From Schmidtea nova (taxonomy: Eukaryota): a DNA stretch of 64,000 nucleotides. The notes under the pieces are model-generated. The model was not told where the DNA came from, did no database searches, and was given only the letters and a program-made list of their open reading frames with translations. The stretch covers positions 404,922,001 to 404,986,000 of the forward strand of contig CM097882.1 of NCBI GenBank assembly GCA_044892505.1, written 5' to 3'. Positions 11,612 through 59,984 of the stretch are shown here, piece after piece (within the stretch, counting starts at the first letter, position 1; each line of letters starts with the position of its first letter). A program made the translations under genes and the position numbers.

Positions 11612-12055
11612 TTATTTCCTGCTCGTGACAAAGATTAAGTGCTGGTATCTCAGGATCCAGTCCGACCAAAGAAATAGAAACCAAGCAAATGTGCTCGAGG
11701 ACACCTCAAACTCAAAAAAGAAGCTCGCTTGCTAGGTCAGGTCCGGAAATTGAATTCCGAGTCAATTGACCTCACAATATTGTGAAACAATCTATATCGA
11801 AATGTTATAAACTTTTGTCTGCGTATCCACATGTATCTTATTCATTGTATACTTTGCTTTGTGAAGTATAAATTAAAATTTCCTTGCCTAAAATTGATTT
11901 TCATTAATATCATTAACATCCCCCATTTGTTTCATTATCAACGTTTCATTGTGACAGGCAACAAGATGGTTAAGCTAATGTTTTATGTGTTGAGTTGTTG
12001 ATGTGAACCATAACAACGTCAGGGCCATATTGACAATCAACAACCCATCAATAAA

Positions 12056-12143: not shown

Positions 12144-13300
12144 GTACGGAAAAGTTAAATAATGGCGATTATTTTTATTATTTTTTATGATGTGTGTCGC
12201 GTAGGTAGTCGTAAATTTCNNNNNNNNNNNNNNNNNNNNNNNNNNNNNNNNNNNNNNNNNNNNNNNNNNNNNNNNNNNNNNNNNNNNNNNNNNNNNNNNN
12301 NNNNNNNNNNNNNNNNNNNNNNNNNNNNNNNNNNNNNNNNNNNNNNNNNNNNNNNNNNNNNNNNNNAATTCGAATTTGGCTTACAATAGCAAACGCTATA
12401 GTAAGCCAAATCGACAGAAATTAAAAAATCGATTAAAAAAATTGAAAGTTTATTTATTACAATTTATTCCAATTTACTCCGTTTACTCCAATGTACCTCA
12501 TTTACTCCAATTACTCCAATTACTCGAAATTACTCCAATCGAAATTACTCGAAATTACTCCATTTTTATTACTCCAGAGTTAAAGTAATATTTTATAATT
12601 ATAGTTAATTGAGACATTATATTGTGCTCATCATTTTTTTGTGAATAATGGTGGGTTGTTGATCGTCAATATGACCTTGACGTTTCTATGGCTCTCATCA
12701 ACAACTCAACACATAAAACATTTAAACTACCATCTTGTTACCCGTCTCTATGTAACGTTGGTACTGTAGCAAGTGGGTGGGTATTCGCAATCAGTGAGCG
12801 TCGTCAATACGAAACTATGATTGACCGAATATCTCCTGGGTCCAAGGGCTACCGATAGAAGGTTTAATGCCCGTTTTGTCCCTTCTTTAATGATTGATCT
12901 ATAAGCATTCAACAAAATTTTATCGGAAATTCAACATAAACACTCTACATAACTATAAATTCATTATTGCATCCAAATAAATTATCCCGGCATCAAAAAC
13001 ACTAATATAACCTTATATTTTACCAATATTGCAATTTATGATAGTTGATACATAAAATATTTTATTTTTACAGAAAAATTTTAATCTGCATTTGAAATTT
13101 AAGAAAAACTTTAATTATTACCGTGATTTTATCAAGTTTAGAAATAATAAAAATAAAATTTCCGTTTGTTTAAAATTGCTAATTTAATCAAAAGGACAAA
13201 TTTACTCAATTCAAAAATCATATTAATTTTAAATGTAAGTTTTTGAATTTTTTCACTAAATTGATTAAATAATGATTTTTAAAGCTCAGATCAACAAAAA

Positions 13301-13556
13301 ATGGATATCCCCAGCAACTACGAAGTCAGAGAAAAATTCTCCCACCCAAAATTGGTCAAAAAAACCAGAATTCCAGCTCCTACGAAGCAAAATTGCCAAC
13401 TCTATCGACCAGGTAAAATTTTGATTATTTTAGAATTATAATTTATTTTGAACGATTTTAGAAAAATTTCCAAAGCGAATACGAGGAACCCGGCCCCTTC
13501 AGAACCGCAAACAAGAAAAATCCTTATCGGGGATTTTTATTCCTCAAACGGAATGA
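13301..13556 (+). CDS. Predicted spliced 68-aa basic microprotein inside LTR copy B (exons 13301-13412, 13462-13556; 5'-UTR intron 13235-13284); duplicated at 17605-17860
   Basis: Two GT-AG introns of 50 and 49 nt (host-typical size). Joined frame MDIPSNYEVREKFSHPKLVKKTRIPAPTKQNCQLYRPEKFPKRIRGTRPLQNRKQEKSLSGIFIPQTE*; AATAAA at 13575 followed by a T-rich tract. Confidence 0.5.
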
Positions 13557-15559
13557 AGGCTATCAATTTTGATTAATAAAATTTTTCTTTTGATATTAGT
13601 TTTTTATCCTTTTTCGTTTATTATTTATTATTTTTATGATTTTTTTGTAATCTGAAAAGTAAAAACTAATGTAGATGGCCTATTACACTAAGTTGGCTGG
13701 GTAAATTTAATTTTATACATGGTATGGTTGAATGATCGCAATTTTTGTATGGTTTTTCTGGATGTGTGATGCAGACTAACATAACTGTGTAGAATTTTCG
13801 GTATGGTTTGCTTGTGTGTATATAACTGTTGAATGCTAATGAATGATACTGTGTATGTATGTATATTGTATTTTAAAGAGATGTTGCTTGTGTATTAGTA
13901 TGGAAAATGTTATTGAATGAAATGGATGTAATTTTTTGCAAATACGGATGTGTTATGATTTTGAGATATCGTGGGGGTAGTTATAGTATACTATATATAT
14001 AAATTATATAAAATATTTTTAAAATTAAAATAATAATAATAATTTTCATAATACTTTTTATAAATTTTAAATTTATAATTTTTTGAAAGTAATATAATAA
14101 TAAAATTTCTAATTTTTATAATATACATTTTTAGATTCGAATTTTTATATTTTAAGTATATATATATAGTAAAAAATTTTTCCTATAAAATTTTGAAATT
14201 TTTGATTTTTTTAAAATGATAAAATTTTCAATATAATAATAATATTTTCGATTTAAAATTTTTATGGGTTTCAATATAAGTTTTGATTTATAAATTCTTA
14301 GGAATTTCATAAAATGACAAAATCTTTTATATCATAACAATATTAGGAAAATTTTTGGGTTACAATTTTTCATCATAAGATTTTTTTCAATATAATAAAA
14401 AGTAAATTTTTATTTTTTGATCAAAATGAAATCCACATAATAATAAATTTTTATCCATCAATTTAGAAATCCAAATAAGCATTTAATCTAAAAAGTTTGT
14501 ATATGCAAAAAAAAAATAAAATAAGTTATAAATTTTTCAACGAATATTTTTAACATCAAGTAAAGTAAATGTCGGTTTCGTCCGAGCAAGAATTTCCCAA
14601 TCAAAGTGCGCGCGAATTTTTTGGGACACTTCACTTAGGAACTTCAGGCTCCCGAAAACAAGATTCACCAGAGAAAAATTATTTTTAATTCAGATCAATC
14701 AATACTTGTCCTAAACTCATTTCATTTCATGATCATTATATCAGTTTTGAGCATTATTTCATATGATTCTTTTCCAACATTAGCTTCCATTTACTTGCGT
14801 TTTCGGATAAGATGACGGTTGTTGCGAGAGTGAAGGCGACGACGAGTAAAATGTTCTTGCACAATTATTTTTCATAATGGAAAATACATTGCTGGAGAGA
14901 TTCGTCTTTACGTTTACATGTGGTATTAATTTTTAAAAGATAAATATCAAAAATTATAAATTCGGATAAACTACATTTATTATAAATCAAATATCATTAA
15001 TATAACAACTTGCCTTTGGCCAAGCCACTGTTCCCCAGTTGGGATGAAGTGAACATGGATGTTTAGGCTATTCACCTGGACTCGAAAATATGGGCTGATC
15101 AATTTACGTATCGAACCAGCGATCCGCTCAGGCTACTTCCACCCGATCGGCACAAGGCCAGACACGGGCTTCAGGGGGTACGGAAGCAAAAAAAAATAAT
15201 TAATTAATTTTATCTTCATACAATAAATAAAATAAATTTTAGTTAAACCTGGGAATTTATGACGTGATTTAAATAAAAAAAAATAAAAAATAAAGACAAC
15301 AATTCTCATTTAATATTTTGAATAATAATCAAACATAACTGATGATAATGTAAGGATAATAATTAATAATATAAAATTAACAAGAATAAAATAATACTGG
15401 GTACGGGGTAATCGAAAAGGCATGACATTCGATGACCCCGCACCGAACAAGAAAATGGTACTTACCAATAAAATCTTCCGGAAAATTTCGGTTTGAATAA
15501 TACAAAAGTAAAAATTCTGCTAATTTTTTTTTTCAAATTCTCAAGAATTTCTGATTATT

Positions 15560-15583
15560 GCCATTTTGATGGCGGTATTTATA
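15560..15583 (+). promoter_or_regulatory. Putative LTR core promoter: GCCATTTT-GATGGCGG (paired YY1-like motifs) plus TATA box
   Basis: Conserved at 15560, 19864, 50461, 56826 and partly at 59430; about 550-630 bp from the CA end in each copy. Confidence 0.55.
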
Positions 15584-16413
15584 CCATCGATTTTCGTCAC
15601 CTTCACCAGTGTAATAAAACAAATTATTCTAGAATTTTCCTTTAATTTTTCTAAATTAATTCTAATGATTTTCCAAAAATTAAATCCATATTTTTGGGTA
15701 ATAATTTTAATTCAAATTTTAATTCAAAAAATTAATTCAAAAATTTTTAATTCAAAATATTTATTTTTGGATCGAAATTTGTTCGATTTGATTTAATTTA
15801 CGATATTTCGATTAATATTAGTTCTTTTTATTGTTAATGTGAAATATTTTGATAAAATCACAATTTTCGGCCAAAATTTTGTTAATTTTTTCTGCATGAA
15901 GGTTTAATAACACAATTCCGTTTTTATGGGTATTTTCAATGGGTTTTCCGCCTATTCTAACTTTCAGACATTCTTCTTTTGATGGCATTTGATTTTTCTC
16001 GAGGTTTCAGTGTAAGGGCTTTCAGACTCACAGCTAGCGCGTTCTCTACCGGTTGATGTGTTTTGAGTCCACTTCACCTTTTGGTGTTTTCCACTTAATC
16101 GTTTGGATTTTTAATGGATATTTGGGTTAAAACTGAATCTTGTGCACTTTCTACCTATGGGGTTATCGCTTTATTAAAACAATTTGTGGTTTTTGCCCAA
16201 CAATAATTAATTAATTTTATTATTTTGTTGTTATTATTTCCAGCATAACACTACATTGCATACACCCCGAGTGTCCCCACAATAATCGGGCTGACTCTCT
16301 CGGGCACTTCAATATTTCCGTACAACCGCATTCGTTACATATAGAAAAACATAAATATTTTACATAAAAATTATCATATAACAATTATCACTACATAAAT
16401 ATATTAAAATTAC

Positions 16414-16447
<34 letters not shown>

Positions 16448-16952
16448 GTACGGAAAAGTTAAATAATGGCGATTATTTTTATTATTTTTTATGATGTGTG
16501 TCGCGTAGGTAGTCGTAAATTTCNNNNNNNNNNNNNNNNNNNNNNNNNNNNNNNNNNNNNNNNNNNNNNNNNNNNNNNNNNNNNNNNNNNNNNNNNNNNN
16601 NNNNNNNNNNNNNNNNNNNNNNNNNNNNNNNNNNNNNNNNNNNNNNNNNNNNNNNNNNNNNNNNNNNNNNAATTCGAATTTGGCTTACAATAGCAAACGC
16701 TATAGTAAGCCAAATCGACAGAAATTAAAAAATCGATTAAAAAAATTGAAAGTTTATTTATTACAATTTATTCCAATTTACTCCGTTTACTCCAATGTAC
16801 CTCATTTACTCCAATTACTCCAATTACTCGAAATTACTCCAATCGAAATTACTCGAAATTACTCCATTTTTATTACTCCAGAGTTAAAGTAATATTTTAT
16901 AATTATAGTTAATTGAGACATTATATTGTGCTCATCATTTTTTTGTGAATAA

Positions 16953-19900
16953 TGGTGGGTTGTTGATCGTCAATATGACCTTGACGTTTCTATGGCTCTC
17001 ATCAACAACTCAACACATAAAACATTTAAACTACCATCTTGTTACCCGTCTCTATGTAACGTTGGTACTGTAGCAAGTGGGTGGGTATTCGCAATCAGTG
17101 AGCGTCGTCAATACGAAACTATGATTGACCGAATATCTCCTGGGTCCAAGGGCTACCGATAGAAGGTTTAATGCCCGTTTTGTCCCTTCTTTAATGATTG
17201 ATCTATAAGCATTCAACAAAATTTTATCGGAAATTCAACATAAACACTCTACATAACTATAAATTCATTATTGCATCCAAATAAATTATCCCGGCATCAA
17301 AAACACTAATATAACCTTATATTTTACCAATATTGCAATTTATGATAGTTGATACATAAAATATTTTATTTTTACAGAAAAATTTTAATCTGCATTTGAA
17401 ATTTAAGAAAAACTTTAATTATTACCGTGATTTTATCAAGTTTAGAAATAATAAAAATAAAATTTCCGTTTGTTTAAAATTGCTAATTTAATCAAAAGGA
17501 CAAATTTACTCAATTCAAAAATCATATTAATTTTAAATGTAAGTTTTTGAATTTTTTCACTAAATTGATTAAATAATGATTTTTAAAGCTCAGATCAACA
17601 AAAAATGGATATCCCCAGCAACTACGAAGTCAGAGAAAAATTCTCCCACCCAAAATTGGTCAAAAAAACCAGAATTCCAGCTCCTACGAAGCAAAATTGC
17701 CAACTCTATCGACCAGGTAAAATTTTGATTATTTTAGAATTATAATTTATTTTGAACGATTTTAGAAAAATTTCCAAAGCGAATACGAGGAACCCGGCCC
17801 CTTCAGAACCGCAAACAAGAAAAATCCTTATCGGGGATTTTTATTCCTCAAACGGAATGAAGGCTATCAATTTTGATTAATAAAATTTTTCTTTTGATAT
17901 TAGTTTTTTATCCTTTTTCGTTTATTATTTATTATTTTTATGATTTTTTTGTAATCTGAAAAGTAAAAACTAATGTAGATGGCCTATTACACTAAGTTGG
18001 CTGGGTAAATTTAATTTTATACATGGTATGGTTGAATGATCGCAATTTTTGTATGGTTTTTCTGGATGTGTGATGCAGACTAACATAACTGTGTAGAATT
18101 TTCGGTATGGTTTGCTTGTGTGTATATAACTGTTGAATGCTAATGAATGATACTGTGTATGTATGTATATTGTATTTTAAAGAGATGTTGCTTGTGTATT
18201 AGTATGGAAAATGTTATTGAATGAAATGGATGTAATTTTTTGCAAATACGGATGTGTTATGATTTTGAGATATCGTGGGGGTAGTTATAGTATACTATAT
18301 ATATAAATTATATAAAATATTTTTAAAATTAAAATAATAATAATAATTTTCATAATACTTTTTATAAATTTTAAATTTATAATTTTTTGAAAGTAATATA
18401 ATAATAAAATTTCTAATTTTTATAATATACATTTTTAGATTCGAATTTTTATATTTTAAGTATATATATATAGTAAAAAATTTTTCCTATAAAATTTTGA
18501 AATTTTTGATTTTTTTAAAATGATAAAATTTTCAATATAATAATAATATTTTCGATTTAAAATTTTTATGGGTTTCAATATAAGTTTTGATTTATAAATT
18601 CTTAGGAATTTCATAAAATGACAAAATCTTTTATATCATAACAATATTAGGAAAATTTTTGGGTTACAATTTTTCATCATAAGATTTTTTTCAATATAAT
18701 AAAAAGTAAATTTTTATTTTTTGATCAAAATGAAATCCACATAATAATAAATTTTTATCCATCAATTTAGAAATCCAAATAAGCATTTAATCTAAAAAGT
18801 TTGTATATGCAAAAAAAAAATAAAATAAGTTATAAATTTTTCAACGAATATTTTTAACATCAAGTAAAGTAAATGTCGGTTTCGTCCGAGCAAGAATTTC
18901 CCAATCAAAGTGCGCGCGAATTTTTTGGGACACTTCACTTAGGAACTTCAGGCTCCCGAAAACAAGATTCACCAGAGAAAAATTATTTTTAATTCAGATC
19001 AATCAATACTTGTCCTAAACTCATTTCATTTCATGATCATTATATCAGTTTTGAGCATTATTTCATATGATTCTTTTCCAACATTAGCTTCCATTTACTT
19101 GCGTTTTCGGATAAGATGACGGTTGTTGCGAGAGTGAAGGCGACGACGAGTAAAATGTTCTTGCACAATTATTTTTCATAATGGAAAATACATTGCTGGA
19201 GAGATTCGTCTTTACGTTTACATGTGGTATTAATTTTTAAAAGATAAATATCAAAAATTATAAATTCGGATAAACTACATTTATTATAAATCAAATATCA
19301 TTAATATAACAACTTGCCTTTGGCCAAGCCACTGTTCCCCAGTTGGGATGAAGTGAACATGGATGTTTAGGCTATTCACCTGGACTCGAAAATATGGGCT
19401 GATCAATTTACGTATCGAACCAGCGATCCGCTCAGGCTACTTCCACCCGATCGGCACAAGGCCAGACACGGGCTTCAGGGGGTACGGAAGCAAAAAAAAA
19501 TAATTAATTAATTTTATCTTCATACAATAAATAAAATAAATTTTAGTTAAACCTGGGAATTTATGACGTGATTTAAATAAAAAAAAATAAAAAATAAAGA
19601 CAACAATTCTCATTTAATATTTTGAATAATAATCAAACATAACTGATGATAATGTAAGGATAATAATTAATAATATAAAATTAACAAGAATAAAATAATA
19701 CTGGGTACGGGGTAATCGAAAAGGCATGACATTCGATGACCCCGCACCGAACAAGAAAATGGTACTTACCAATAAAATCTTCCGGAAAATTTCGGTTTGA
19801 ATAATACAAAAGTAAAAATTCTGCTAATTTTTTTTTTCAAATTCTCAAGAATTTCTGATTATTGCCATTTTGATGGCGGTATTTATACCATCGATTTTCG

Positions 19901-20506
19901 TCACCTTCACCAGTGTAATAAAACAAATTATTCTAGAATTTTCCTTTAATTTTTCTAAATTAATTCTAATGATTTTCCAAAAATTAAATCCATATTTTTG
20001 GGTAATAATTTTAATTCAAATTTTAATTCAAAAAATTAATTCAAAAATTTTTAATTCAAAATATTTATTTTTGGATCGAAATTTGTTCGATTTGATTTAA
20101 TTTACGATATTTCGATTAATATTAGTTCTTTTTATTGTTAATGTGAAATATTTTGATAAAATCACAATTTTCGGCCAAAATTTTGTTAATTTTTTCTGCA
20201 TGAAGGTTTAATAACACAATTCCGTTTTTATGGGTATTTTCAATGGGTTTTCCGCCTATTCTAACTTTCAGACATTCTTCTTTTGATGGCATTTGATTTT
20301 TCTCGAGGTTTCAGTGTAAGGGCTTTCAGACTCACAGCTAGCGCGTTCTCTACCGGTTGATGTGTTTTGAGTCCACTTCACCTTTTGGTGTTTTCCACTT
20401 AATCGTTTGGATTTTTAATGGATATTTGGGTTAAAACTGAATCTTGTGCACTTTCTACCTATGGGGTTATCGCTTTATTAAAACAATTTGTGGTTTTTGC
20501 CCAACA
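16953..20506 (+). mobile_element. Giant solo-LTR-like element, copy B' (identical duplicate of B)
   Basis: Same termini, ATAA TSD and flanks as copy B; part of the 4304-bp duplication. Confidence 0.8.
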
Positions 20507-20714
20507 ATAATTAATTAATTTTATTATTTTGTTGTTATTATTTCCAGCATAACACTACATTGCATACACCCCGAGTGTCCCCACAATAATCGGGCTGACT
20601 CTCTCGGGCACTTCAATATTTCCGTACAACCGCATTCGTTACATATAGAAAAACATAAATATTTTACATAAAAATTATCATATAACAATTATCACTACAT
20701 AAATATATTAAAAT

Positions 20715-20779
<65 letters not shown>

Positions 20780-22200: not shown

Positions 22201-22489
22201 ACCTAATTGGAATTTTAGTTATAGAATTTCTGAATTGGTTTCTTAGAATTTATGGATTGTTTATTCGTATTAATTCGAGTTAATTGTTTTGATTTTTCGA
22301 AATTTGTGCTTTGAATTTAAAATAAACGTTTTGAAGAATTTTCTTGCTGAATATTTTTCTCTCGAAATTTGCTTTAGAAATTAGCCTGAGTACTCGCTTT
22401 AACAATCTCTACGATTTAATACCAATTCATTGAAACTGATTTGTTGTTGATTTCGACAATTTGACTTTAATCCCATTCCAATTTCAATC

Positions 22490-23160
22490 CCGAAGAGCAA
22501 TATAAACATCCGAAATATGAAGGCCATAGCTCATGTTGATCATGGAAAGTCTAACTCAACAGATTCGCTAGTAAGTAAAGATGGCATCATAGCAGGGTAC
22601 AAAGCCGATGAGGCTAAATTTACAGAGACAAAAAAAGATGAACAGGGAAGATGTATAATCATAAAATATACAGCTATTTCCATGTACATTGAAATGACTG
22701 AAGACAATTTAGCTACTGTCAAATTTGTTCAACCTGTAACGTTAAGTGACGATGGGAAAACTGACGAAAAAGGATTTATAATCAATTTAATCGATTCTCC
22801 TGGCAACATTGATTTCAGCAGTGAAATGGAAGCGGTATTGTGAGTTAATAATGGAACATTTGTTTTTGCAAATTGTGTTTCCGGAGTCTGCGTTCGAACA
22901 GAGATCTTATTGCGACAGGCTATGGTTGAACAAATTAAACCGGTGTTGTTCACAAATAAAACGGATATGGCAGTTCAAAGTTTACAATGCGCACCGGATG
23001 ATTTATGTCAAAACTTTCAAAGATTTATTGAAAGTGTCAATGTTATTGTAGCGCAATATGGTGAATTGGAAGGACTGATGGGAGATATTCAAGTCATACC
23101 TGAAAATGGCATTGTTGGTTCCGGATCTCGATTACAAAGTTCGGACTTTGCTGTTAAAAA
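22490..23160 (+). pseudogene. EEF2: Truncated intronless pseudogene of eukaryotic elongation factor 2 (G-domain)
   Basis: [67 protein letters not shown]. In-frame TGA at 22841, substitutions in GTPase motifs, ends after about 220 codons. Confidence 0.93.
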
Positions 23161-23446
23161 CTTGGCATGCTTCACGATGTCCTTTCAGTTAAAATATAAT
23201 GTACGCACTCCAACTCAGTTTTGTTTTTTATTATAAGTTGGGAGAGTTTTGTGAATTAGTGTAATTTTTGTCTTTGATTTTGTATTCCCTCATACGGGAT
23301 TTCCCCCCCCCCCATCTTCGCTTGTGGTAAATGCAATTTGTTTAATATCTTGAAATTGTGATTAAGGTTTATTAACTTAAAATTTAAATTAAAAGAAATC
23401 GATAGAAATTACAATTTTCAATAGTAATAACTAGAGATAAAATTCC

Positions 23447-36290: not shown

Positions 36291-36387
36291 TTCTACCCCC
36301 CCCGGGGTCTTTGTTCTTTTTCCCGCCCACGCCACCCACGCAATGAGTCATAATGTCCCTATTCCCGGCTCCACACATCTACCTACT

Positions 36388-46188: not shown

Positions 46189-49100
46189 TGTTAGGTTGTT
46201 GATCGTCAATATGACCTTGATGTTGCTACGGCTCTCATCAACAACTCAACATAAAAAACATTGAATTTAACCATCATTTTGCCCGTCACAATGTAACGTT
46301 GGTAATGCAACAAATTGGTGGGTATTCGCAATCAGTGAGCGTCAAAAAATTCGAAACTATGATTGACCAAATATCTCCTGGGTCCAAGGGCTACCGATAG
46401 AAGGTTTAATGCCCATTTCGTCCTTTCTTCAACGATTTCTTTGTAATCATTCAATGATATTTTAATCGGAATTTAAAAATAAATAATCTAAATCAATATA
46501 AATTTATTATGGTATCAAAAATAACCCAGTTTCCGACATCAAAACATTAATAATTCATGTAAGGATCCATTTACGATGCACATAGCATAAGAACAAACAG
46601 AATAGAATAATGACAATTATTCGTACAAGAAGTGTTAAAGTTCTTTGGGTTTTCCGAGATGTTTTCGTACCTTACTGTCACTGAATTTTCGATTTCTCCG
46701 ATAAATCTAAAGCGTAATAAAATCAATTATTTCAATCAGCTGCTACACATTATATTATAAAAAGAAAAACAAGCATATTCGCATTTTTAGTTGATTTCCA
46801 AGCTCATACGCAAACATATCATCACAACCTAAACTCGGGGGTCGAAATCTCAACTAAAGGCATAGCTTTTTTCGGGATATTTTATCACAATTAATCTTGT
46901 CTAATTACTTATTTTATTTGCAAAATTTTCCGATTTTTACTTTTTTTCCCTTTAATTAACAAATCAATCTGAAAGATTTTAATCCCCTATGCCTAGTGTT
47001 TATCTTGATATATATTAAACTTGTCCATAATTTTATTAAAACTTGGATATTTTATCTTTTCAAAAATCCTAATGAGGCCCTGACAACGGGTAACGAAGCA
47101 AAATTTTCAATATTTTGTTATTTATCCGACAGTTAAATATTGATTTTCATAGATTTTATTGAATCTTTTAGATTACTTATTATGAGTTAATTTAGAAAAT
47201 TGAATTTTATCGCTTTTCCCTCAAAATCACCTGCGTTCCCCCGATGAAAAGAAAACTATATGAACGCAAATGCAAAATTGGCTGATTCCTATTGGATAAT
47301 TTATAGTATTCACTTTTAATTTACTATGATAATTTATTGATTTGCTATTTATTGATTTGCTATTTTTAGAATGACATTCTATTCAGATCGGTGGATATTT
47401 TTGACGATATGGGGTAAAATTGTAATTTTCCTTTCATTATTATTTCAACCGAATTTTTCGTATAGATAACTTCGTTCCATTAATTCATTGATGTGGAAGA
47501 ATTCTCAGCAGAGCTAATATTAATCAAGTACTTTATTCTATCTGATCTAAATTATTCACCTATGAAATTTTCAAGAATTTATTAGGCTTTATGCAACAAT
47601 GTACTTATTGGAAATTTTTCGATTCAGCGGAAACTAAAATCTATTTCCTGATTAATTTTTCTTCGCCGTAAATGGATTATTCTATTGATGGAGGTTTATT
47701 CTCCTAACTTAACCTCATTTTGGGCACATTTCGACTTGGATTGTCTGTTCATCACTGAAATTTGCCTGTACGTCTTGATAACTACATTGTGCTGACATCA
47801 GCTAATAAATAAAGTTTAATTTGTTCTGATTTTGGTTATTTATGCTGACCCAGTATAGTCATTTCCACAGCCTTGTGGGATCTCCCTTTTGGGCATTGAG
47901 TTATAATCTCCATTAACCTCGATGAAACCTGAAACGGTATACGTAAGCTGGTACAGCGTTTTGTTTGTGTTTTTTATTTAAGTGGCTTACATATCTATAT
48001 AATGTCTCTATATATTAATCTATATGCACGTTTATATATCTAATTAATATATCTATATAATACTTTACCTACGTTTGTATAACTCTATATGTGAAGGCTA
48101 TTGTGCTTCAGTTGGGTCAAATTCTTTTTCCTAGGACATTGTAAAACATTATAAGAGAAAATTAGAGATAAATTGGTTGAATTTTATATTGAACACGATA
48201 GATATTGCCACTGGTAAGCTACGAACCGCTATCTACTAGCACTACCGTCTACGTTGGAAAATTTTTAAGTACAAAATCGAATTAGATGACGATCCTGATT
48301 ACTATCTTAATGGTTCACTAAGGGTTAGACTAGATAGAGGTATCCTGAGTGTGATGAGTAATGGTATAGGATGTTATTTGTTGTAATGATGAATTCGGTT
48401 TAGTGACATAGATGAGTGAGATTTTTAGGGGGGTTGCTGAGCGGGTTGTCTATAGTAGAAACTCTACGTAGGTTTTTCTAGATGTAGTATGCTGACTTCG
48501 TGTGACGATATGTTGAATTGAATGATAAGTGAAAAACAAATTAGTTAGTAATGGTGAGATTGGATGAGTGCTTGTGAGATTTTCTGGATGTATGATGCAG
48601 TCAGACGTTGTTTAATGAAACAATGTTGTGTATGTTGGTGAATGGATGTATTGTCTATTGTATTGTCTAATATAGGAGATCTTATTTATTGAAATGTGGT
48701 AGTGTGTGTGTTGAGAATTGAATGGACTTTTGTATTGTATTAGGTATATATGTTGCTAATGAATGGTATGGATGAAAGGTTTTGCAAATATTGATGTATC
48801 ATAATTTTTGCGATATCGGGGGGGGGGGGTATTTATAAAATAATATATATATATATTTATATATAAAATATTTTTAAAATTAAAATAATAATAATTTTAC
48901 AATTCCTTTTACAAAATTTTAAATTTACAATTTTATAAAAGTTATTTAATAATAAAATTTCAAATTTTTATAATATAAATTTTTGTATTCTAATTTTTAT
49001 ATTTTAAGGATGTACATATCTTTTCATTGTAAATTTTTCTACAGAATTTCAAATTTAGAATTTTTTAAAATAATAATAAAATTTTTTGGCTTATAATTTT

Positions 49101-49986
49101 CACGTATTCCAATATAAGGTTTGATATAAGAATTTCTAGGAAGAAATTTTGATTTATAATTTTTATATTATAATTTTTACATAACATAGTATTTTTATTT
49201 TTATAACCGAATCTAAAAATTCTATAAGATTTATACAATAATAAAATTTTTATTCACAAATTCCACAATCTAAATAATTCAATAAATAAAAGAATTTATA
49301 TTAAATTAACTTTAAAAATAAATTATAAATTTTTACAAAAATTATTTCCAATCATATACGAACTTCTGAAATAAAATATATATAAAATTCGAGACGGTTC
49401 TCTTGGCGATCTCTGCACCTCTTAGAAGTTTTTACCAATGATGTTTACGGTTTGGTAAAAATTCATTGAACTATTATCGAGCATAATCAGTAAGCATTAT
49501 TTTAATATAACATTTTTACTATTTTTCGAGTGGTAATTTATGATCTTTTATACATTTGACTTTCCGATCGATATTGTGAATTCTTTCATAGTGAAGTAAA
49601 GGCGACGTTTATGGAGCGAAGGCGAATAACGAGCTGAATATTTTTGTGCTGATAAATTTTACCGTTGAAAAGACATTGATGGATGAATTAATGTTGGTAT
49701 TTTGTTGAAGTATCAGTTTTCAATTGCACTGTATGTTGTAAAATATAGTTCAGATAAAATTACATTAACATAGATTTAATATCATTAATATGAAAAACCT
49801 TGCCCTTGGCCAAGGCACTGTTCCTCAATATGAGATGAATGATCATGGATGTTTGGGCTTCACCTGAGGCGGAAAAATGGGCTGGCCAGTTACGAACCGA
49901 ACAGCGATCCACTCAGGTTACTTTCATCCGTATAGCACAAGGCCGAACGGATGTCAGAATGTATGGAAGTGCTTTTAATAAAGTAC

Positions 49987-50077
<91 letters not shown>

Positions 50078-51107
50078 TGTGTATATGATAAATAATAATA
50101 AAATGATATTAGTTTATGAGAAAATGTGACGAGATTTTATAAATGTTTGAATATAAAAAATTATAATTTTCATAAAAGAATGCATAAAATATCATATAGT
50201 ACACACAGACCAAGGTTAAAATAATTAAAAATACCTATGCCGGGAAGCGAGGGCATGATCTCGAGGGGCCTTTATAATTAGGAAACAAAATCAAGTTTCT
50301 TACGAATAATTCGATTCACGACCACAAATAATCTTCTTTCGTAATATTCTGTTATACTAGTAGTAAGAGATTCTCTGTTAAAGTTTCCCTGCTAAAAACC
50401 TCAAAATATTTAGCAACAAAATTCTTCCGCAAATCTTTTGCAAAATAGCATTAATTTTCTCCATTTTTATGGCGGTATTTATACAATTTTCCGCATTTTT
50501 ATTTCCATTGAGGTATTAAAACAAATCGTTCTAGAAGGAGTTTCTAATTTTCTCAAAATTAATTTCAACAATTTTCCGCAAAGCTAAATTAATAATTTTA
50601 CATCAAATTTTCATAAAACTAAATAATTTCTTTTTAGTCCAAAATTATACTTTTGAATTAAAGTTTATTCTAATTTAATTTAATTTGTTGCATTTTAGAT
50701 CAAAATTATTTTTCTTTTATTTTTACGAATTATTATTACTTTTACGAATTTTTAAGATAAAATCGTATTCTTCCTTCTGCAAACATGCTAAATTTCTACA
50801 ACTGAGGTTTTATAACGTAAATGCGTTCTTCACGTGCATATCCAATGTGTTTTTTGTCTATTCTAGTTTTTAGACGTGCTTCTTTTAACTATTTTGATTT
50901 TTCCTTGATGTTTTGATTAAAGGACTTTAGATTAGGATCTTGCGCGCTCTCTACTTGTTAATGCACTTTGGTCCACTTTAATATTTAGGTGTTTTTTCAC
51001 TTAACTACTTCGATTTTACTTGATGCTCTGGTTAAATTAGAATCTTGCGCGCTCTCTACATGTTGTGTTACCGCTTCATTTAAACAATTTGCAGTTTTGG
51101 CCCAACA
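46189..51107 (+). mobile_element. Giant LTR-like element, copy C (4919 bp)
   Basis: Starts TGTTAGG, ends CCCAACA; all conserved blocks collinear with B and D. Its own flanks (ATTC / TATA) do not match each other. Confidence 0.85.
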
Positions 51108-51129
51108 TATAGAGAGAAATTTGTAACGA

Positions 51130-51843
51130 GGATGATGTGACCATTACTAGAATCTGTGAACAAATATTCAGAGAACGCGGACCTCCGTGCCAGTTGCTCA
51201 TGGATAATAGCAGTTCATTTAGGTCTCGTCAATTAGAGGAATTATGTACAAAGTGGGGTATTAGTCGTATTTTTCGATGCGCCTTCCAACCATCGGGAAA
51301 CGGAATTATTGAGAAGAACCACAGGACCGTGAAGAGAATGGCGACTTTGAAGAGCCTTCGCGACAACTATTTCGCGACTGGAAGGATATGCAAGAAGTGG
51401 AAATCGGGAATGACGAAATTCGTAGTCGTTATTCTAGAGGAGACAAGGTATTCTGTAAGCCGCCGAATGCAAGATGTATAAGTGTTTGTACGGAGGGTAC
51501 CGTCACAAACGTTCACTCGCCCACGAATATCGAAGTGAATGGTGTCCCCAGGCACATAGCTGACATCAGACAGGTTGAGTTGACTGATATGACGGGAGAA
51601 GAGCGAACTATTGCAAATAATGGTCAACCTACGACTGAAATGTCAACCGATAGGCAACAAAGAAACCGATACATACCAGCGTATCTACAAGATTATATTC
51701 TCGGAGGCGACGCGCGTGACGATGATGTTGACATCACGAGGGAACGTGATAATTGATTATTATGTTTGTTTTAATAATGTCAAAAACGTGATTGTTAATT
51801 TTATGAATTTATAAATAAAGTTATTCTTGTGCGTTCGACTTCA
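51130..51843 (+). mobile_element. 3' fragment of a small Gypsy element: integrase core remnant, purine tract and about 97-bp LTR (51747-51843)
   Basis: GPPCQLLMDNSSSF...WGI...FRCAFQPSGNGIIEKNHRTVK (rve D..E region); tail RYIPAYLQDY; GAGGGAACG then TG...AATAAA...CA. Confidence 0.75.
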
Positions 51844-51850
51844 TATTTAA

Positions 51851-51917
<67 letters not shown>

Positions 51918-52162
51918 GTATGCTTATTTATTNNNNNNNNNNNNNNNNNNNNNNNNNNNNNNNNNNNNNNNNNNNNNNNNNNNNNNNNNNNNNNNNNNNN
52001 NNNNNNNNNNNNNNNNNNNNNNNNNNNNNNNNNNNNNNNNNNNNNNNNNNNNNNNNNNNNNNNNNNNNNNNNTGAGTAATTATAGCTAATAATTTTGTTT
52101 GAATACCATCCTTTAATTGTTATATTTTTCTTTTTTAAACCTCTAATAAAAACACATTATAA

Positions 52163-52495
52163 ATGCCCAATATTGAATTGGATAAATTTGGATATGAACA
52201 ATCTGTTCTATCCTCTCGAGTGGATGAGCTGGATCTTTCGTCTCAACAAATCAATAACCTTGCCGAAAATGAAAAGAAAATATGCTACAATTTTGGATAT
52301 TTATCAAGGCTGTTTCATCCAAAATCACAAGCCTGTTTCCCGATTGTGTGGCTTAATCCTATAATATTTGTAAAGCCGGAGCCTATTTCCGAAGATCAAC
52401 AAATCAACTACCGAGGACAATTCAAAGGATTTAAAGTGAAAATCGAGTCGAAAAGCAAACCAATCATGCGAGCTGTTCTGACTCTTTGTCGCTGA
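52163..52495 (+). CDS. 110-aa ORF of unknown function in the cargo slot of LTR copy E
   Basis: ATG-to-stop ORF followed by AATAAA at 52562, positioned upstream of the conserved mid-element motif like the cassettes of other copies. Confidence 0.4.
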   Translation: MPNIELDKFGYEQSVLSSRVDELDLSSQQINNLAENEKKICYNFGYLSRLFHPKSQACFPIVWLNPIIFVKPEPISEDQQINYRGQFKGFKVKIESKSKPIMRAVLTLCR

Positions 52496-53048
52496 AAATT
52501 GTTTGAATGGTATGCTCCATGTTGAGCAGTGTCCTAATGACAAATCAACATCTTTTATTGAAATAAAATTTTTATATATGTACGTAGGCACTACACTATT
52601 GATTGAAAATGGATGTATTAATTTGCAAATATGGCTTTATAGTTATTTCTTAGGATTAATTTTAAAAATTTTTTTAAAATGATAAATCAATTATAGGATT
52701 TGTAATTTTCGAGAATAGATAAATTTGAATTTGAATTTTAAAATTTGTAAAATTTAGATAATAATAAAATTTTTAGATTTATAATTTTTTTAATCTACAC
52801 ATTTAATTTAAATTTTTTAAGTTTTTCATAATATATTGTTTTTGATAATAGAATTATATTTTTACAAAAATTAATTTTGATCGTATGCAAACTTCCCAAA
52901 TAAAATTTACATAAAATTTTCAAGATAATTCATTTGGAAATTTCGAATACCCAAAATTATAGAAACAAAGTTTAAAAGTTTTTATGAATAATGTTTCTGA
53001 TTTAAGCGAAATTCAGCTAAATAAAATCAAATATAATTTGCATAATCT

Positions 53049-56000
53049 TGGTGGGTTGTTGATCGTCAATATGACCTTGACGTTGCTATGGCTCTCATCA
53101 ACAACTCAACACAAAACATTAGAATTAACCATCTTGTTGCCCATCACTATGTAACGTTGGTAATGCAACAAATGGGTGGGTATTCGCAATCAATGAGCGT
53201 CGTAAATACGAAACTATGATTGACCGAATATCTCCTGGGTCCAAGGGCTACCGATAGAAGGTTTAATGCCCATTTTCGTCCCTTCTCACATGATTTAACT
53301 GCAGATATATATTTTAAATTAACAAAAATGAAGTAATTTCATCAATTAAAATTTATTAATTTGTCCCAGTCAATCATTATGCTCGGTATTATCTAAATTC
53401 TCGGGAATTTTCGTACATTCAATTCATTCACGAACCCATTTTCGAACATATTATCATGACCTCATTCGGGGATCGATTATTCTTTAAAAAACAAACAATC
53501 TCAATTCGGGAATCGAATAATCTTTTATCAATACATATTTGATCGTAATTATTTTTGTCTAAATAATCATTGATTGCAAAATTTCGATTTCTGTATTTTT
53601 TCCTTTTAGTAAAAACTCAATTTAAGAATTTTCAATCCCCTATACCTAGTGTCTATCTTGCTTTTAATTTGTGATGTAACTTTTATCAAAAATTTAACAC
53701 TAGCTTTCAAATTTCTGCCGCGTCCCTAACAACAGGCAACGACGAAAATAAAAAAAATCTAAATGACTTTGTTAAAATTTTAATTAAGTTTTTATGACTT
53801 ATTTAGACATCTGAATTTTAGATCAATTTTATATTAGGAAACAAACTACCAAGCGCCCTGGTGTCGATTTCATCACCAAAAAACGGACGAAAGATTAACT
53901 ATATAAACGTCTTTCAAAAAATTCAAAGATCCTATTGGCTAAATTTTATTATGGTAAGTATTATATCATAGCGAAATTTATTGATTTGGTTTTATTTTAT
54001 TTTTAGCAACAGAGGTTTCCGTTTCAAACTGGAAATAGAGGTAAAATTTCATTTTTTCTTTTTTTTCTAAATTACAAGATCATTCCTAATAGCCCCAAGC
54101 ATTATCGGAGAAATCTCAAGTCATACGTCCAACAGAAATGAAATCCTCAATATTGTCAATTAGTCACAAAATCCGATCTCTCTCAGCATTTTCTTCTTAT
54201 TGCGTTTCCGTCGCAAATGGCTGCAGTAAATCTGGCAAATCCTCTATGCCAACCACTATGGAAAGAAGGTCATTATCATTGTGACCACCAAAATCAAGCC
54301 TGTCCTTTCGTGCAGGACTCTTACCTGGATTTTTGGAATATATGGATTAATCTGTGTATATTGATCTTGATGTATTTTTGTTTGGAAATTTTATACACAA
54401 TAAAAAAACTGTTATTTCCGTATGAATTTTCTTTATTAAATGATAATAGTGATTTAATAGATATTTAAACGGAAACCAAGTACAGTAGTTTTGTCGCCCG
54501 TTTCCCTCATGTAATGGTAAACCTCATCGAAATTCCACCTTTCATAGTCAGTATAGTTGGGATGGACGCTATAAATTACATGTTTTCTTTTTTACAATTG
54601 TTCTTATACTTGTAAATTATCCAGAGAATGGTTATTTGTCAATATAAATAAAGAATAAAATCAATAATATTATTGGTAATTAATTATTGGTAAATAATAG
54701 AATGTTATTGGTAAATAATTGGCTTGCTTGAGTTTATAATTAATTAACCTTTTGAATTACATTTCCGAGATGCACCATGCTGCATGGATGATGTGAGTAA
54801 GTGGGGTGATTGAGTATGAAGATAGTGTTGTTGAGTGAGACAAGCGAAGTTATGTGAAATTATTGTGGAATGAATTTGTTGTGTAGGGCGTTTGCTATGG
54901 ATGTTGATTGTTGGATGAGCTGATTTTGCATGGATTTATGGATGTATGATGCTAACTAACATAACTGTATCGATTTTCTGTATGAATTATTTGGGTGTAT
55001 GTTGCTATGAGTGTTATTGAGTGATACGGTGTGGTGTGTGGATTGTATTTTAAATAGATGTTGCTTGTGCTATTAGTATGGACGATGTTATTGAATGGTA
55101 TGGGTGCATTATTCTGCAATTATAGGTGTATTATATCTTTTGTGATACCGTGGGGTTTTGTTTATAATTAATAAATTACACAAATATAAAATTAAATTTT
55201 TACAATAAAAAAATAATTTTATAAAAAATTTTTTTAAAATTTGAATTTTATGAAGTACAATAAAATTTTCAAATTGTACTTTTTATATTTAAAAAAAAAA
55301 TTTTCAATCTTGCAAACTAGTATGAAGATTCGATTTATAAAAATTTTTTAATATTTCTAATGAGAATAGAAAAAAATTTTTCCCTGATATAGTTCCAAAA
55401 AAATGAATTTTGGTTTTATAATTAAGATTTGCATTTTTCACAATAACTAAAATTTTAATTCATAAATTTAAAATAAAGAAGTAACTCAAAATTTTTCCAC
55501 CGTCATACGAATGCTTTTACTATAAATGTCTGGATCAGTAATTTCACAAGGATTCAAGCCTGTTGATCTAAAGTAATTTTCACAATAAATTTTTATTTCA
55601 GCTTTTATATCTTCGTTCGGTTATCATTAAAAATCAACTCTAATTCATAATAGTTTTCGACATAAAGTAGGTGAATTTCGGTTTCGTTCGAGCATGAATT
55701 TCCCGAACAAAGAGCGCGCGGATTTTTCGAGACACTTCACTTGGGAACTTCAGGCTCCCGAAAACAAAGTTCACTGGAGTAAAATTATTTAGATAATTAT
55801 GCATTTAATGAGGTTTAATTCAAATAAATCAATACTTGTCTTCTTATTTCGTTTTTTGGTAATTATTTTATCGGTTTTGAGCGTTATTTTGAACGATTCT
55901 TTTTACAATATTGGCCTCTACTCGACATGTATTTTCGGATAAGATGACAATTTTTGTGAGAGTGAAGGCGAATAACGAGTTGAATATTCTTGTACAGATA

Positions 56001-57456
56001 AATTATATAATGGAAAAGACATTGATGGATAAATTGATGTTAGCGTTTTTATGTAGTATAAGGTTTTAAGTCCACATCATGTTAAAAATATAATTAAGAT
56101 AAAGATACACTACTATAAATTACAGATGATTAATATAACACCTTGCTCTTGGCCATGCCACTGTTCCCCAGTTGGGATGAAGTGATCATGGATGTTTGGG
56201 CGTATCACCTGAAGTCGGAAAAATTGGCTGATCGATTACGAATCGAATTAGCGATCCGCTCAGGCTTCTTTCACCCGATCGGCACAAGGCCAGAAAAGAT
56301 TTCAAGGGGTATGGAAGCAAAAAAAATTATTTATTTGATATCTGATATTTTAAATACTGAAACTTTATGACTATGGGAATCTGTGATAATGTTAATGAAA
56401 AACAAAATTAAGAGTTAAAATTTAAGATAATAAGATCATATAAACTATAAAATATAATATTTACACTAAAATTATTAATATGCAAAATAACAAATATCCT
56501 AATAATAAAATAAAAATAACTAAAAAAAGAGCAATGTCGACATGGAATGTCCAAAGGGCATGACTTTTTTGGGCCTCCCATATCGATGTAATGTTAATAA
56601 AATAAGATAAAACAAGAAAAAAAACATAAAATAAAATAATGATACCCTTAGGTTCAATGTGGCTTTTTTAACAGTTTTTCTTTCTCTCGGGAAAATAAAT
56701 GGTTCTTCTAAAAATTCTGGTTTGAGCGGAAATTTAAATTTTTAATCAAAATTTTTCACAAAATTCTCACAAGTTCTAAAAACAAGAAAATTTCCACACA
56801 AATTCTGAATAAAATTCTGATTCTTGCCATTTTGATGGCGGTATATATACCATCGATTGTGTGTTACCTTCACTAATGCAGTAAAACAAATTGTTCTAGA
56901 ATGTTCTTTTTAATTTCTCTAAATTAATTCTAACAATTTTCCGTAAAATTAAATCAATATTTTTACTTAATAATTTTTATAAACCATAAATAATTTATTT
57001 TTAATCCAAAAATTTTATTTTTGAATCAAAATTTATTCAATTTGATTTAATTTGCTATATTTCAATCAAGATTAGTTCTTTTTATCTTTAATGTGAAATT
57101 TTATGATAAAATCACAATTTTCTTCTAAAATTTTGTTAATTTTTCTGCACTGAAGTTTTATGACACAGTTCTGTTCTTTATGGGCATTTTAAATGGGTTT
57201 TCCGCCTATTCTAACTTTCAAACGTTCTTCCTGTGACGACTTTTAATTTTTCTTGAGGTTTCAGTGTAAGAACTTGCAGATTCCCAGCTAGCGCGTTCTC
57301 TACTAGTTGATGTGCTTGAGTCCACTTCACCTTTTTGGTGTTTCTCACTTAATCGCTTCAGTTTTTAATGGATGTTTGGGTTAAAATTGAATCTTGCGCG
57401 CTCTCTACTTAGGGGGTTACTGCTTTATTAAAACAATTTGCAGTTTTTGCTCAACA
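53049..57456 (+). mobile_element. Giant solo-LTR-like element, copy D (4408 bp)
   Basis: Starts TGGTGGG, ends CTCAACA, perfect 4-bp TSD ATCT (53045-53048, 57457-57460); TATA at 56842. Confidence 0.88.
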
Positions 57457-59409
57457 ATCTAATACAATCAATATTCTCTATTATAATCTAGACATTCCTA
57501 TTATGCTTTGAGTTTCTAGTTAGAAGATTTTTATAAATTCGGTTTTCTAAATGACTTTGCAATTTCTTTCGTGATGAGGTGAAGAAGATGTTCATGTAAA
57601 CGAAGGTGATTTATTGAATAGACGCATAATTTCGATAGCTTTTATTGTGTAAGAACTTTTGTGTAGTTGTGATAATCAATGAATTTTATATAGATACAAA
57701 TAATTACTGTGATATAATACAAATAATTTTAATTTGAGCAACCTTGCGCTTGGCCAAGTCACTACTCCTCATACAGTCAGGTTTGAGATTAAGCATAATT
57801 GGATGTTTGCGCTCACTTCGATGAAAAATGGATCAGAAAGCTGATCGAACCCCAGCTAACAAATGATTCATCAAAGTAAATAATGATGATACAAATTATC
57901 GCTGGACCATCATCAGACGTAAATGAAACAAAGATAATAAATATAATATAATAATAACATTTAAAGTTTTGTCGATCCTGGGACAAATGTGACCGAGTAT
58001 TTGCTTCACATTAAACTTCAAAAATTTATAATGATGAAATCAAAAGCAAAATTTTTAATAAAGTATGATATAATAAAATGAACTGTTTTAAATATCGTCG
58101 GACTCAACCAACAATGACATTACATAATGGTACAAAGAAATTTAAATCAGTAAGGAATAAAATAAAGATAAAATAAATAACATAAAAATAAAAATAAAAA
58201 AAAAATAATATCCAACATCGGACGAACTATGACATGATTCGTTGTCACATGCCATCAGAGTAAAGATTTCTTACATTTTGAAATGAAGCTCTACAGGTTT
58301 TAAAGTCTTCGTTCTACTATCGGTTGATCGTAATTGAGAGAAATGGATCGTCGGTTCTCTTGAAAATTTTCAATGTCGAATGAATTGAATAAGACTTTTG
58401 ACTCCGTTAGGTGAAAGTGGTTTATCAGACTTTTTTTCTCAACAAAAACTTCTTTTTGAATAAAATTATTTGGCAGGGATCTGCCTTTGATGGTAGCTCC
58501 CGTTGGGTAGTTGTAAATTGTGCTTCTATTGAAATTGATGGTTTCAGGCTGTTATTATCGTTGATGCATTTAAACAAATTGTTCTAGAAGGAATTTTCGA
58601 TTCTTCCAAAATTTAATTTAACGATTTTGAGCAAAATTGAATTAATATTTTTGTATAAAGTTTTAATAAAACTTTAGATAATTTATTTTTAATCTAAAGT
58701 TTTACTTTTAAATCAAAGTCTTTCTAATTTTAATTCAATTTGCTAAATTTTTATCTAAAGCAATTTTCTTTTATATTTTATGAGTTTTTAAGATAAAAAT
58801 CGAAATTTTCCTTCAGAAAATATGTTAGTTTTTTCTAATCTGTAATTTTATTTCATAATTGATGTTTTTATGTTATATTTGTGTTTTCAACGAGTATACT
58901 TGATGCATTTTGTACAGTTTGGTTTTTAGACGTGTTTTATTTAATTATTTATGTGATTTGTCATTACTTTGTTTTACATGGTGTTCCTCATCATATGACT
59001 TTAAGTTTACTTCTTGCGCGCTCTCTAAATGTTGTTATACCGCGTTATTCAAACAAATTTCAGTTTTTGCCCAACAATTCGCTTTCTTACTCAGATGAAG
59101 ATGAAGGAAAGAAAAATAATAATAAATAATTTTAATTCTTATATAATCCAACGTATATAAATTTAAAAACATCATAAAATAGTGATCCGGTGAGTTTCGA
59201 TTGTTTGCGTGATGATATCCGCTGTATCCTTTGGCGTATTTCAGTGGTGTCTATCCTGACTTATCCGAACAGGAAGTCTAAATTGAAGTCCTCCTCGGTG
59301 AAGATTAAATTGGGCAGAGGTTTTTGGTAATCACAAATTCACTCGTGAGCTTTGGTCCAAATCTTTAGTAGAGTTTTACTCAATGAAATATTTCATCGGT
59401 CGGAGTCAC

Positions 59410-59984
59410 AAAATCCTGCTGATTATGATTTTGATGGCAGTATATATAGAGGTATTTGTCTGTTGTTTTCGTTGAGGTATTAAAACAAATTGTTCTAGAA
59501 GGAATTTTCGATTCTTCCGAAATTAAACTTAATAATTTTAAGCAAAATTAAATTATTATTTTTGTATAAAATTTTTATAAAACTTTAAATAATTAATTTT
59601 TAATCTAAAATTTTATTTTTAAATTAAAGTTTTTTCTAATTTAGTTTAATTTACTAAATTTTTTTCTAAAACAGTTTTTTTATGTTATGAGTTTTTAAGG
59701 TAAATATCTAAATTTTCCTTCTAAAAAATATGCAAATTTTTATTGATTTGTAATTTTATTTTCTAATTGTTGTTTTTATGTTATATTTGTGTTTTTAACG
59801 CCTATATTTGATGCGCTTTTGTTCATTTTAATTTTAAAAGTGTTTTATTTAACTTTTCAGGTGTTTTGTGATTGCTGTGTTTTACTTGGTGTTTTAACTC
59901 ATAGAATTTTAAATTTACTTCTTGCGCGCTTTGTACATGATGTGTTACCGATTCATTATAACAAATCTCAGTTTTTTCCCAACA
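59410..59984 (+). mobile_element. 3' (TATA-to-end) segment of a further giant-LTR copy F
   Basis: TTTTGATGGCAGTATATATA, ATTAAAACAAATTGTTCTAGAAGG, CTTGCGCGC, ends CCCAACA. Confidence 0.75.

Follow-up and report, generated by a model that had tools for sequence, protein, structure and literature searches.

RNA structure maps of LTR retrotransposons come mainly from yeast Ty1 and Ty3 (PMC11381356). Ty3 RNA dimerises via a short GC-rich palindrome near its 5' end, and PAL6 (nt 391-396) lies outside the LTR and apically within a hairpin (PMC11381356). The stretch of DNA analysed here, a window of 64,000 nt, contains several copies of a compact island within giant LTR-like units. Similar to Ty3 and retroviral leaders, the island is a structured, putatively cis-acting element with a short GC-rich palindrome near the predicted 5' end of the transcript (PMC11381356). 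It differs from Ty3, as described in that source, in that the palindrome resides in the LTR and is half-paired by an internal loop, as part of a 180-nt three-hairpin domain without sequence likeness to Ty3.

The units that carry the island resemble Burro/GYPSM1, the giant gypsy elements of planarians, in the probable flatworm host, the multi-kb LTRs and the high copy number (PMC6431247). This likeness is one of description only, with the interior of the element absent here, and the available parts of PMC6431247 do not describe the RNA structure of the LTR. Helenus, Ajax and Cassandra (TRIMp3) have TRGCY, YGG and GGTTC words in the LTR, all three of which occur in copy B, and animal Helenus shares the 4-bp target duplications (PMC10886601). 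However, the full length of these elements is 311-1,263 bp, and what they conserve is the promoter words, not a fold (PMC10886601), whereas here the LTR alone spans 3.5-4.9 kb, a TATA box is present and the fold is conserved where the B-box word is lost. At 3,554-4,919 nt, the units exceed the miniature size of TRIMp3 (up to ~1.3 kb), and neither ARAGORN nor Rfam found a tRNA-derived segment, the only likeness being a 15-18-nt T-arm-like word. The Pol III pri-miRNA cassettes of foamy virus and BLV likewise combine consecutive hairpins (53-58 nt each on the minus strand of the island) and a B-box-like word, here ~70 nt from the 5' edge, with a long LTR (PMC3993851, PMC12498455). Compared to these cassettes, as far as the sources describe them, the island has large one-sided loops, varies in both arms, lacks a terminator at the hairpin base and would lie downstream of the Pol II start rather than in U3. 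In retrozymes, too, the LTR of a gypsy-related element contains a structured RNA motif (PMC4918200), but the present LTR is ~10 times longer than those described and lacks a hammerhead core.

The original prediction, made from the sequence alone, had placed four island copies at 15009, 49799, 56142 and 57743. All four starts were confirmed by coordinates, and the window holds one further copy:

15009..15187, minus strand: island copy B, three consecutive hairpins
19313..19491, minus strand: island copy B', identical to B, a probable assembly duplicate
49799..49969, minus strand: island copy C, 78% identical to B and 79% to D
56142..56318, minus strand: island copy D, 85% identical to B
57743..57925, minus strand: island copy E, the most diverged, with the outer helices retained and the inner stem of hairpin 2 gone

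The anchor pattern matched five times in the window, compared to none in 100 shuffles. The segments 12367-16439 and 16671-20743 are arranged in tandem and are 100% identical over 4,073 nt, with an identical flank and an N gap of 147 nt in front of each half, and the duplicate is probably an assembly artefact. Since B' lies inside this exact duplicate beside N gaps, it was excluded from the independent copies, and the alignment tests used B, C, D and E (n=4). BLAST aligned E to the other islands over the first 31 nt only. The predicted GC richness holds for B, C and D (49-52% GC), E being lower (40%), in an AT-rich window that mostly has 21-40% GC per kb. Over the 2.5 kb common to B, C and D, no other 179-nt stretch is as well conserved as the island, whose three-way identity is 0.65-0.70 versus 0.42 overall; the right end of the unit comes next (0.66). 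No reading frame is open in all copies, in agreement with the original prediction (the one stop-free frame occurs in D only), and protein coding was rejected on this ground.

Searches for island relatives in metagenomes yielded no match to one pattern and 10 loci for a second, none of them similar beyond the pattern itself, and viral contigs yielded no match. In the sequencing runs X1, X3 and X4, the summed depth of contigs aligned to D rises 10- to >100-fold across most of the island; the three runs belong to one study and depth depends on likeness to D, giving no copy number, so that the rise is a hint of better conservation than in the flanks. A second, smaller depth peak is found at 55923-56037 (14790-14900 in B), around AAGGCGA...ACGAG and, on the plus strand, upstream of the island, in a stretch that is conserved in B, C and D and unstructured in the shuffle test. 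The invariant loop word of the island, ATGGATGTTTGGG, recurs on the same strand at 57368-57380, near the other end of unit D (E 0.37, which may be chance), with 12 of its 13 letters found in B at ~16114.

The units start with TGGTGGG or TGTTAGG and end with CCCAACA or CTCAACA, forming 7-nt imperfect inverted repeats. The features of the units and of the putative promoter are as follows:

12649..16202, minus strand (probable orientation): host unit B, a 3,554-nt TG...CA solo LTR with ATAA/ATAA flanks
53049..57456, minus strand (probable orientation): host unit D, a 4,408-nt TG...CA solo LTR with ATCT/ATCT flanks, inserted into E
46189..59076, minus strand: nested LTR stack, with C at 46189-51107, an E remnant to 59076 and ATTC on both outer sides
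15576..15583, minus strand: TATAAATA, TATA box common to B, C and D (TATATATA in D and F), with a predicted Pol II start near 15553
15627..15634, no strand assigned: TTCTAGAA, invariant in five of five aligned copies, 44-51 nt upstream of the minus-strand TATA box
12649..12895 (also 46189-46440 and 53049-53295), no strand assigned: terminal 250 nt of the unit, putative U5 end, with 84% three-way identity

The unit ends fit the LTR consensus TGTTRNR...YNYAACA in either direction, with the starts of B and D departing at one position (PMC3601003). The TG...CA ends, together with the 4-bp target duplications of B and D, led us to read the units as solo LTRs. As the 64-kb window holds no full-length element, PBS, PPT or gag, we infer LTR status, family and orientation from these features. 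The own ends of C (46189 and 51107) have no common target duplication; this mismatch and the ATTC at 46189 and 59076 would agree with nested insertion and later recombination. Four or more copies of the LTR family (C, D, E and F), all in the same orientation, sit inside one another at 46189-59984, which suggests an insertion preference for its own LTR.

The LTR probably reads on the minus strand. TATAAATA is perfect only on this strand in B and C, and the only TATAWAW word common to B, C and D near the promoter-like block is also found there, ~400 nt upstream of the island. Conservation drops sharply downstream of this TATA box, and upstream it continues via the invariant TTCTAGAA and a GCGCG block. 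Against the certainty of this orientation stands an AWTAAA-like word that follows the same TATA box on the plus strand in B, C and F. Over the 2.5 kb tested on the minus strand, between the TATA box and 13714, no polyadenylation hexamer is common to the copies. The promoter-like block (15560-15634 and its homologues) comprises a GCCAT/ATGGC inverted pair, the TATA box, AAACAAA and the invariant TTCTAGAA. The latter resembles a heat-shock element, and the retroelement may be stress-inducible. The terminal 250 nt are more conserved than the island (0.84) and are structured on both strands (1 of 60 shuffles each), with an invariant ATTAAA on the minus strand ~215 nt before the minus end; they constitute a second structured domain, probably the U5 end, and in this role would favour the minus orientation. 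A truncated, opposite-orientation copy of the LTR terminus is located at 11922-12053, adjoining a TA microsatellite.

The window is full of other transposon remains, including Tc5/pogo, mariner and IS1595-type elements, a Polinton-like polymerase and an integrase piece. Directly after the end of C, at 51113-51840, lies a fragment of a different LTR element, with a piece of the integrase core and a short LTR-like end. A DNA polymerase B gene of Polinton-like type, broken and with a segment resembling endonuclease VII, occupies 36354-38843. In addition, an intronless, decayed pseudogene piece of elongation factor 2 (EF2) is found at 22451-23236, with an identity of 74-75% to two proteins, 63-65% to named flatworm EF2s and up to 62-63% to nematode and arthropod EF2s; it has the VQPV linker in common with flatworm EF2s. 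An EF2 tree, with 10 of its 14 inner branches open, did not place the host, which is probably a flatworm.

The island is a real structured RNA, whose three-hairpin fold is kept, with the minus strand favoured, while both sides of the helices change. None of the single copies folds better than its shuffles (200 dinucleotide shuffles, both strands, z from +0.6 to -1.6). In the alignment-fold test, columns were shuffled within conservation classes. On the minus strand, the four-copy alignment reached -29.1 kcal/mol versus -15.0 +/- 3.3 kcal/mol for the shuffles (z -4.3, 0 of 300 as low); it also had 12 pair swaps, whereas the shuffles averaged 6.5 and reached this number in 4 of 300 cases. On the plus strand, the energy gave a z of -2.1 (9 of 300) and the 11 swaps were equalled in 14 of 300. 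Without E, the energy was matched by 0 of 300 shuffles on the minus strand and 46 of 300 on the plus strand, and the swaps by 37 (not significant) and 22 of 300, respectively. For the island core alone, the corresponding minus-strand values were 1 and 17 of 400. Moreover, the covariation term of RNAalifold was -1.97 on the minus strand versus +3.01 on the plus strand. Two control stretches of the same LTR failed on energy, with 7, 7, 12 and 53 of 60 shuffles as low, and one of them had six swaps on the minus strand (2 of 60 shuffles as many). This evidence comes from four independent copies only. The predicted structured RNA within the LTR is borne out by an alignment fold that beats column shuffles and by swaps in five helices.

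The automatic alignment misregistered C in the apical stem, and the pairs of a hand model were set by coordinate. Its components are:

15135..15187, minus strand: hairpin 1 (5' on the minus strand), with a 6-bp base, a 12-nt one-sided bulge, 5-bp and 3-bp helices and a CUUGU loop; one swap (C1-2)
15075..15132, minus strand: hairpin 2, with an outer CCUGA/UCAGG helix, a 7-nt one-sided loop, GCUG/CAGC and an inner 6-bp stem overlapping the B-box-like word; four swaps (B1-2, B2-1, B2-3 and B4-4)
15012..15068, minus strand: hairpin 3 (3' on the minus strand), with a closing 4-bp helix, an A-rich 6x4 internal loop and an apical CCC/GGG stem, holding the palindrome; three swaps (A1-3, A1-4 and A4-3)
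15016..15023, no strand assigned: TTGGCCAA palindrome, candidate dimer contact, 8 nt in B, 10 nt in C and E and 6 nt in D

The model has 49 pairs and hence 196 cells, with 22 missing (21 from E and one from C) and 174 present, the latter comprising 148 Watson-Crick pairs, 18 G.U pairs on the minus strand, five G.U pairs on the plus strand and three others. Two Watson-Crick types are seen at eight of the 49 pairs, which are spread over five helices, with a further one in hairpin 1; four of the eight depend on E alone. The strand bias amounts to 13 versus 4 positions (p 0.049), or 5 versus 3 without helix ends. As the model was fitted on the same copies, these counts describe the fold rather than test it. 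In E, the degenerate copy of the original prediction, the outer helix of hairpin 2 is still present, both of its sides having changed; at the position of hairpin 1, where its alignment is unreliable, E forms a hairpin from different sequence.

The nested helices CCTG/CAGG, GCTG/(C,T)AGC and TCGATT/AATCGA had been predicted correctly, as the coordinates show. CCCA/TGGG in B and D would leave a loop of 2 nt and hence allows only three of its pairs, and its exchange for CTCA/TGAG represents a single compensated pair rather than several. A better supported helix, GCNY/RNGC (56145-48 with 56198-201 in D), had been missed, as had the third hairpin. Among 40 of the 97 variant rows for contigs of four runs aligned to D, five letters of D in paired cells are rare in the contigs, including three of the five plus-type wobbles, and they look like decay of copy D. 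In X5, a soil metagenome, a single contig (record 26, depth 8) has the letter of D at 56147 together with the complementary letter at 56199, representing a third Watson-Crick type for this pair on one molecule.

The best explanation, in which our confidence is evenly balanced, is that the island serves as a cis-acting RNA structure in the Pol II genomic transcript of the retroelement. Pol II would start ~30 nt below the TATA box at 15576-15583. A start near 15553 on the minus strand would place the island at about +370 to +545, in a long R/U5 leader. By analogy with retroviruses and Ty3, the likeliest job of such a fold is dimerisation or packaging, which we put forward tentatively as a possibility; export or 3'-end control, the next likeliest, is unlikely. 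Gag might recognise the hairpins via the one-sided loops and the A-rich loop in them, and the UUGGCCAA palindrome, half-paired in the fold, might switch to an intermolecular duplex when chaperoned, again by analogy, through which the RNA would be dimerised and packaged. Selection would have acted on replicating elements, the solo LTRs seen here being inherited copies that are now decaying. Retroviral packaging signals are usually located near or after the PBS, which counts against packaging, for the PBS would be expected at the LTR end, ~2.4 kb further on from the island.

The palindrome is conserved and GC-rich, as in the dimer initiation sites of retroelements. It had been described as perfect in C and E, and it indeed measures 10 nt there, with the 6-nt core in all four copies; the A that extends it at 56156 makes up ~80-86% of the depth of contigs aligned to D. 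Palindromes of 10 nt come up in 13% of shuffled B sequences. In the fold model, the island palindrome is half-paired beside the internal loop and not in the apical loop. Of the predicted homodimers, that of C is formed through the whole palindrome, that of B through part of it and that of D without it. The proposed dimerisation signal is the leading sub-role, but the half-paired, non-apical position of the palindrome leaves it weakly supported.

Alternatively, the island would be a small RNA gene that the element carries on the minus strand and Pol III transcribes, similar to VA/EBER genes or to the foamy virus LTR cassettes, perhaps derived from a tRNA or SINE fragment and giving a discrete structured RNA of 180-240 nt. 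We regard this as doubtful. Three promoter-like words in copy B bear on it:

15108..15117, minus strand: B-box-like or tRNA T-arm-like word, pattern GGTTCRANNC
15124..15135, minus strand: A-box-like word of the original prediction, 6 nt from the B-box word
15150..15160, minus strand: second A-box-like word, with a TRGCY start and two mismatches to TRGYNNARNNG, 32 nt before the B-box word

GGTTCRANNC occurs in 0.9% of 5,000 shuffles of the B island, and with a TRGCY word 36-43 nt before it in two of 5,000, the motifs having been chosen after the sequence was seen; beyond the B and B' islands, a single further match to GGTTCRANNC exists in the window. The letters of B at 56248 and 56249, where D departs, account for >99% of the aligned contig depth in X1, X3 and X4, and of 120 viral loci with the 15-nt word around the B box, 86 have it within a tRNA called by ARAGORN. 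The island is also sharply bounded and GC-rich, and precedents exist (PMC3993851, PMC12498455, PMC10886601). However, although the GGTTC letters occur in most aligned contigs, the full B-box word is absent from C, D and E, so that the two predicted box words, both present in B, include a B box found in one of the four window copies. According to PMC12498455, A and B boxes are usually 30-60 nt apart and the A of the B box is 94.6% conserved. The A box of the original prediction, which had itself remarked on the unusual closeness, lies 6 nt from the B box; the well-spaced A word has two mismatches, and with it the start of the gene would fall inside hairpin 1. Moreover, in C the near-invariant A of the B box has been replaced, and so has the base with which it pairs; the word is lost while the stem (B4-4) is kept, which suggests that the stem matters more than the box.

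The T-run of the original prediction, internal to the island, is not common to the copies: a T at 56222 (plus strand), present in 65-76% of the aligned depth, shortens it to three unless position 56218, outside the variant rows shown, also varies. Downstream, the first run of at least four T past the island is at the edge in C and ~55-60 nt away in B and D. A terminal stem joining the 5' and 3' ends is a feature of type 2 Pol III small RNAs (VA, EBER and vault). The two ends of the island form no such stem, the fold consisting of three separate hairpins. In addition, neither ARAGORN nor Rfam detects a tRNA, and tRNA alignments extend little past the 15-nt search word. Of the predicted VA/vault-like small RNA there remain the B-box word and the A-like word 32 nt upstream, of which the original prediction had made no use, whereas the loss of the box in C and the lack of a common terminator and of a terminal stem speak against it. 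In its fullest form, a gypsy-type invertebrate giant LTR would carry its own Pol III gene for a three-domain ncRNA, built around a captured tRNA T-arm and acting in trans as a decoy against RNA silencing or dsRNA sensing, like VA and EBER; this is more doubtful still.

A DNA-level element, either a cluster of factor-binding sites or inverted repeats with the fold as a by-product, is distinctly unlikely. Such an element would agree with the ordinary stability of the single copies, with their small number and with the recurrence of the invariant loop word near the other end of unit D, but swaps in five helices, paired indels in E and the strand asymmetry would be unexpected of binding sites.

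An IRES-like element controlling translation in the long leader would suit the ~180-nt, three-domain architecture, and a leader of at least 2.9 kb would be expected to hinder scanning. The CUUG loop of hairpin 1, which is invariant, might reach the CAAG tail in a long-range contact, proposed originally as a closure of the domain, but this contact never varies in the aligning copies and so gains no support from covariation. At ~2.4 kb from the LTR end, the island would be remote from any gag start if the leader is not spliced; B, C and D have no splice donor word in common, Rfam gave no IRES match, and this reading is very unlikely.

A self-cleaving ribozyme as in retrozyme LTRs is highly improbable, despite the plant precedent (PMC4918200) and a faint hammerhead likeness of hairpin 1, where a CUGA word precedes a helix that is followed by GRAAG. 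A hammerhead-core screen of units B, C, D and E on both strands had no match, and a loose HDV screen had six, five of them overlapping matches in E and none in the B, C or D islands; Rfam gave no ribozyme either, and this part of the original prediction found no support. At the gathering score, Rfam matched nothing in the whole window, and by E-value it gave chance-level matches only, one in B (E 5.3) and four in unit D (E 1.5-4.6). This result led to the rejection of supposed likenesses to the U2, 7SL, 5S, RNase MRP and vault RNAs, and ARAGORN reported no gene. An independent SINE insertion, conceivable from the A-run after B and D, was discarded as C has no A-run and the loose ends of diverged contigs resemble the same flank; a tRNA cloverleaf, as the alternative anticodon-like helix breaks in C and there is no acceptor stem; and a pre-miRNA, in view of the large one-sided loops and the variation of both arms.

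Literature searches, confined largely to open-access papers and not reaching the primary Burro paper, which may bear on the question, found no description of such a domain in flatworm LTRs, and the island is apparently an undescribed structured RNA domain in a giant LTR. If a discrete Pol III RNA were made from it, this RNA would be to transposons what VA and EBER RNAs are to viruses, and, if the decoy function were true, thousands of solo LTRs would be dispersed genes for a Pol III decoy RNA. Many diverged copies seem to exist, which would allow a well-powered covariation test. Altogether, a compact, covarying domain that is absent from Rfam, within a multi-kb animal LTR, offers a concrete target for the function of giant LTRs.
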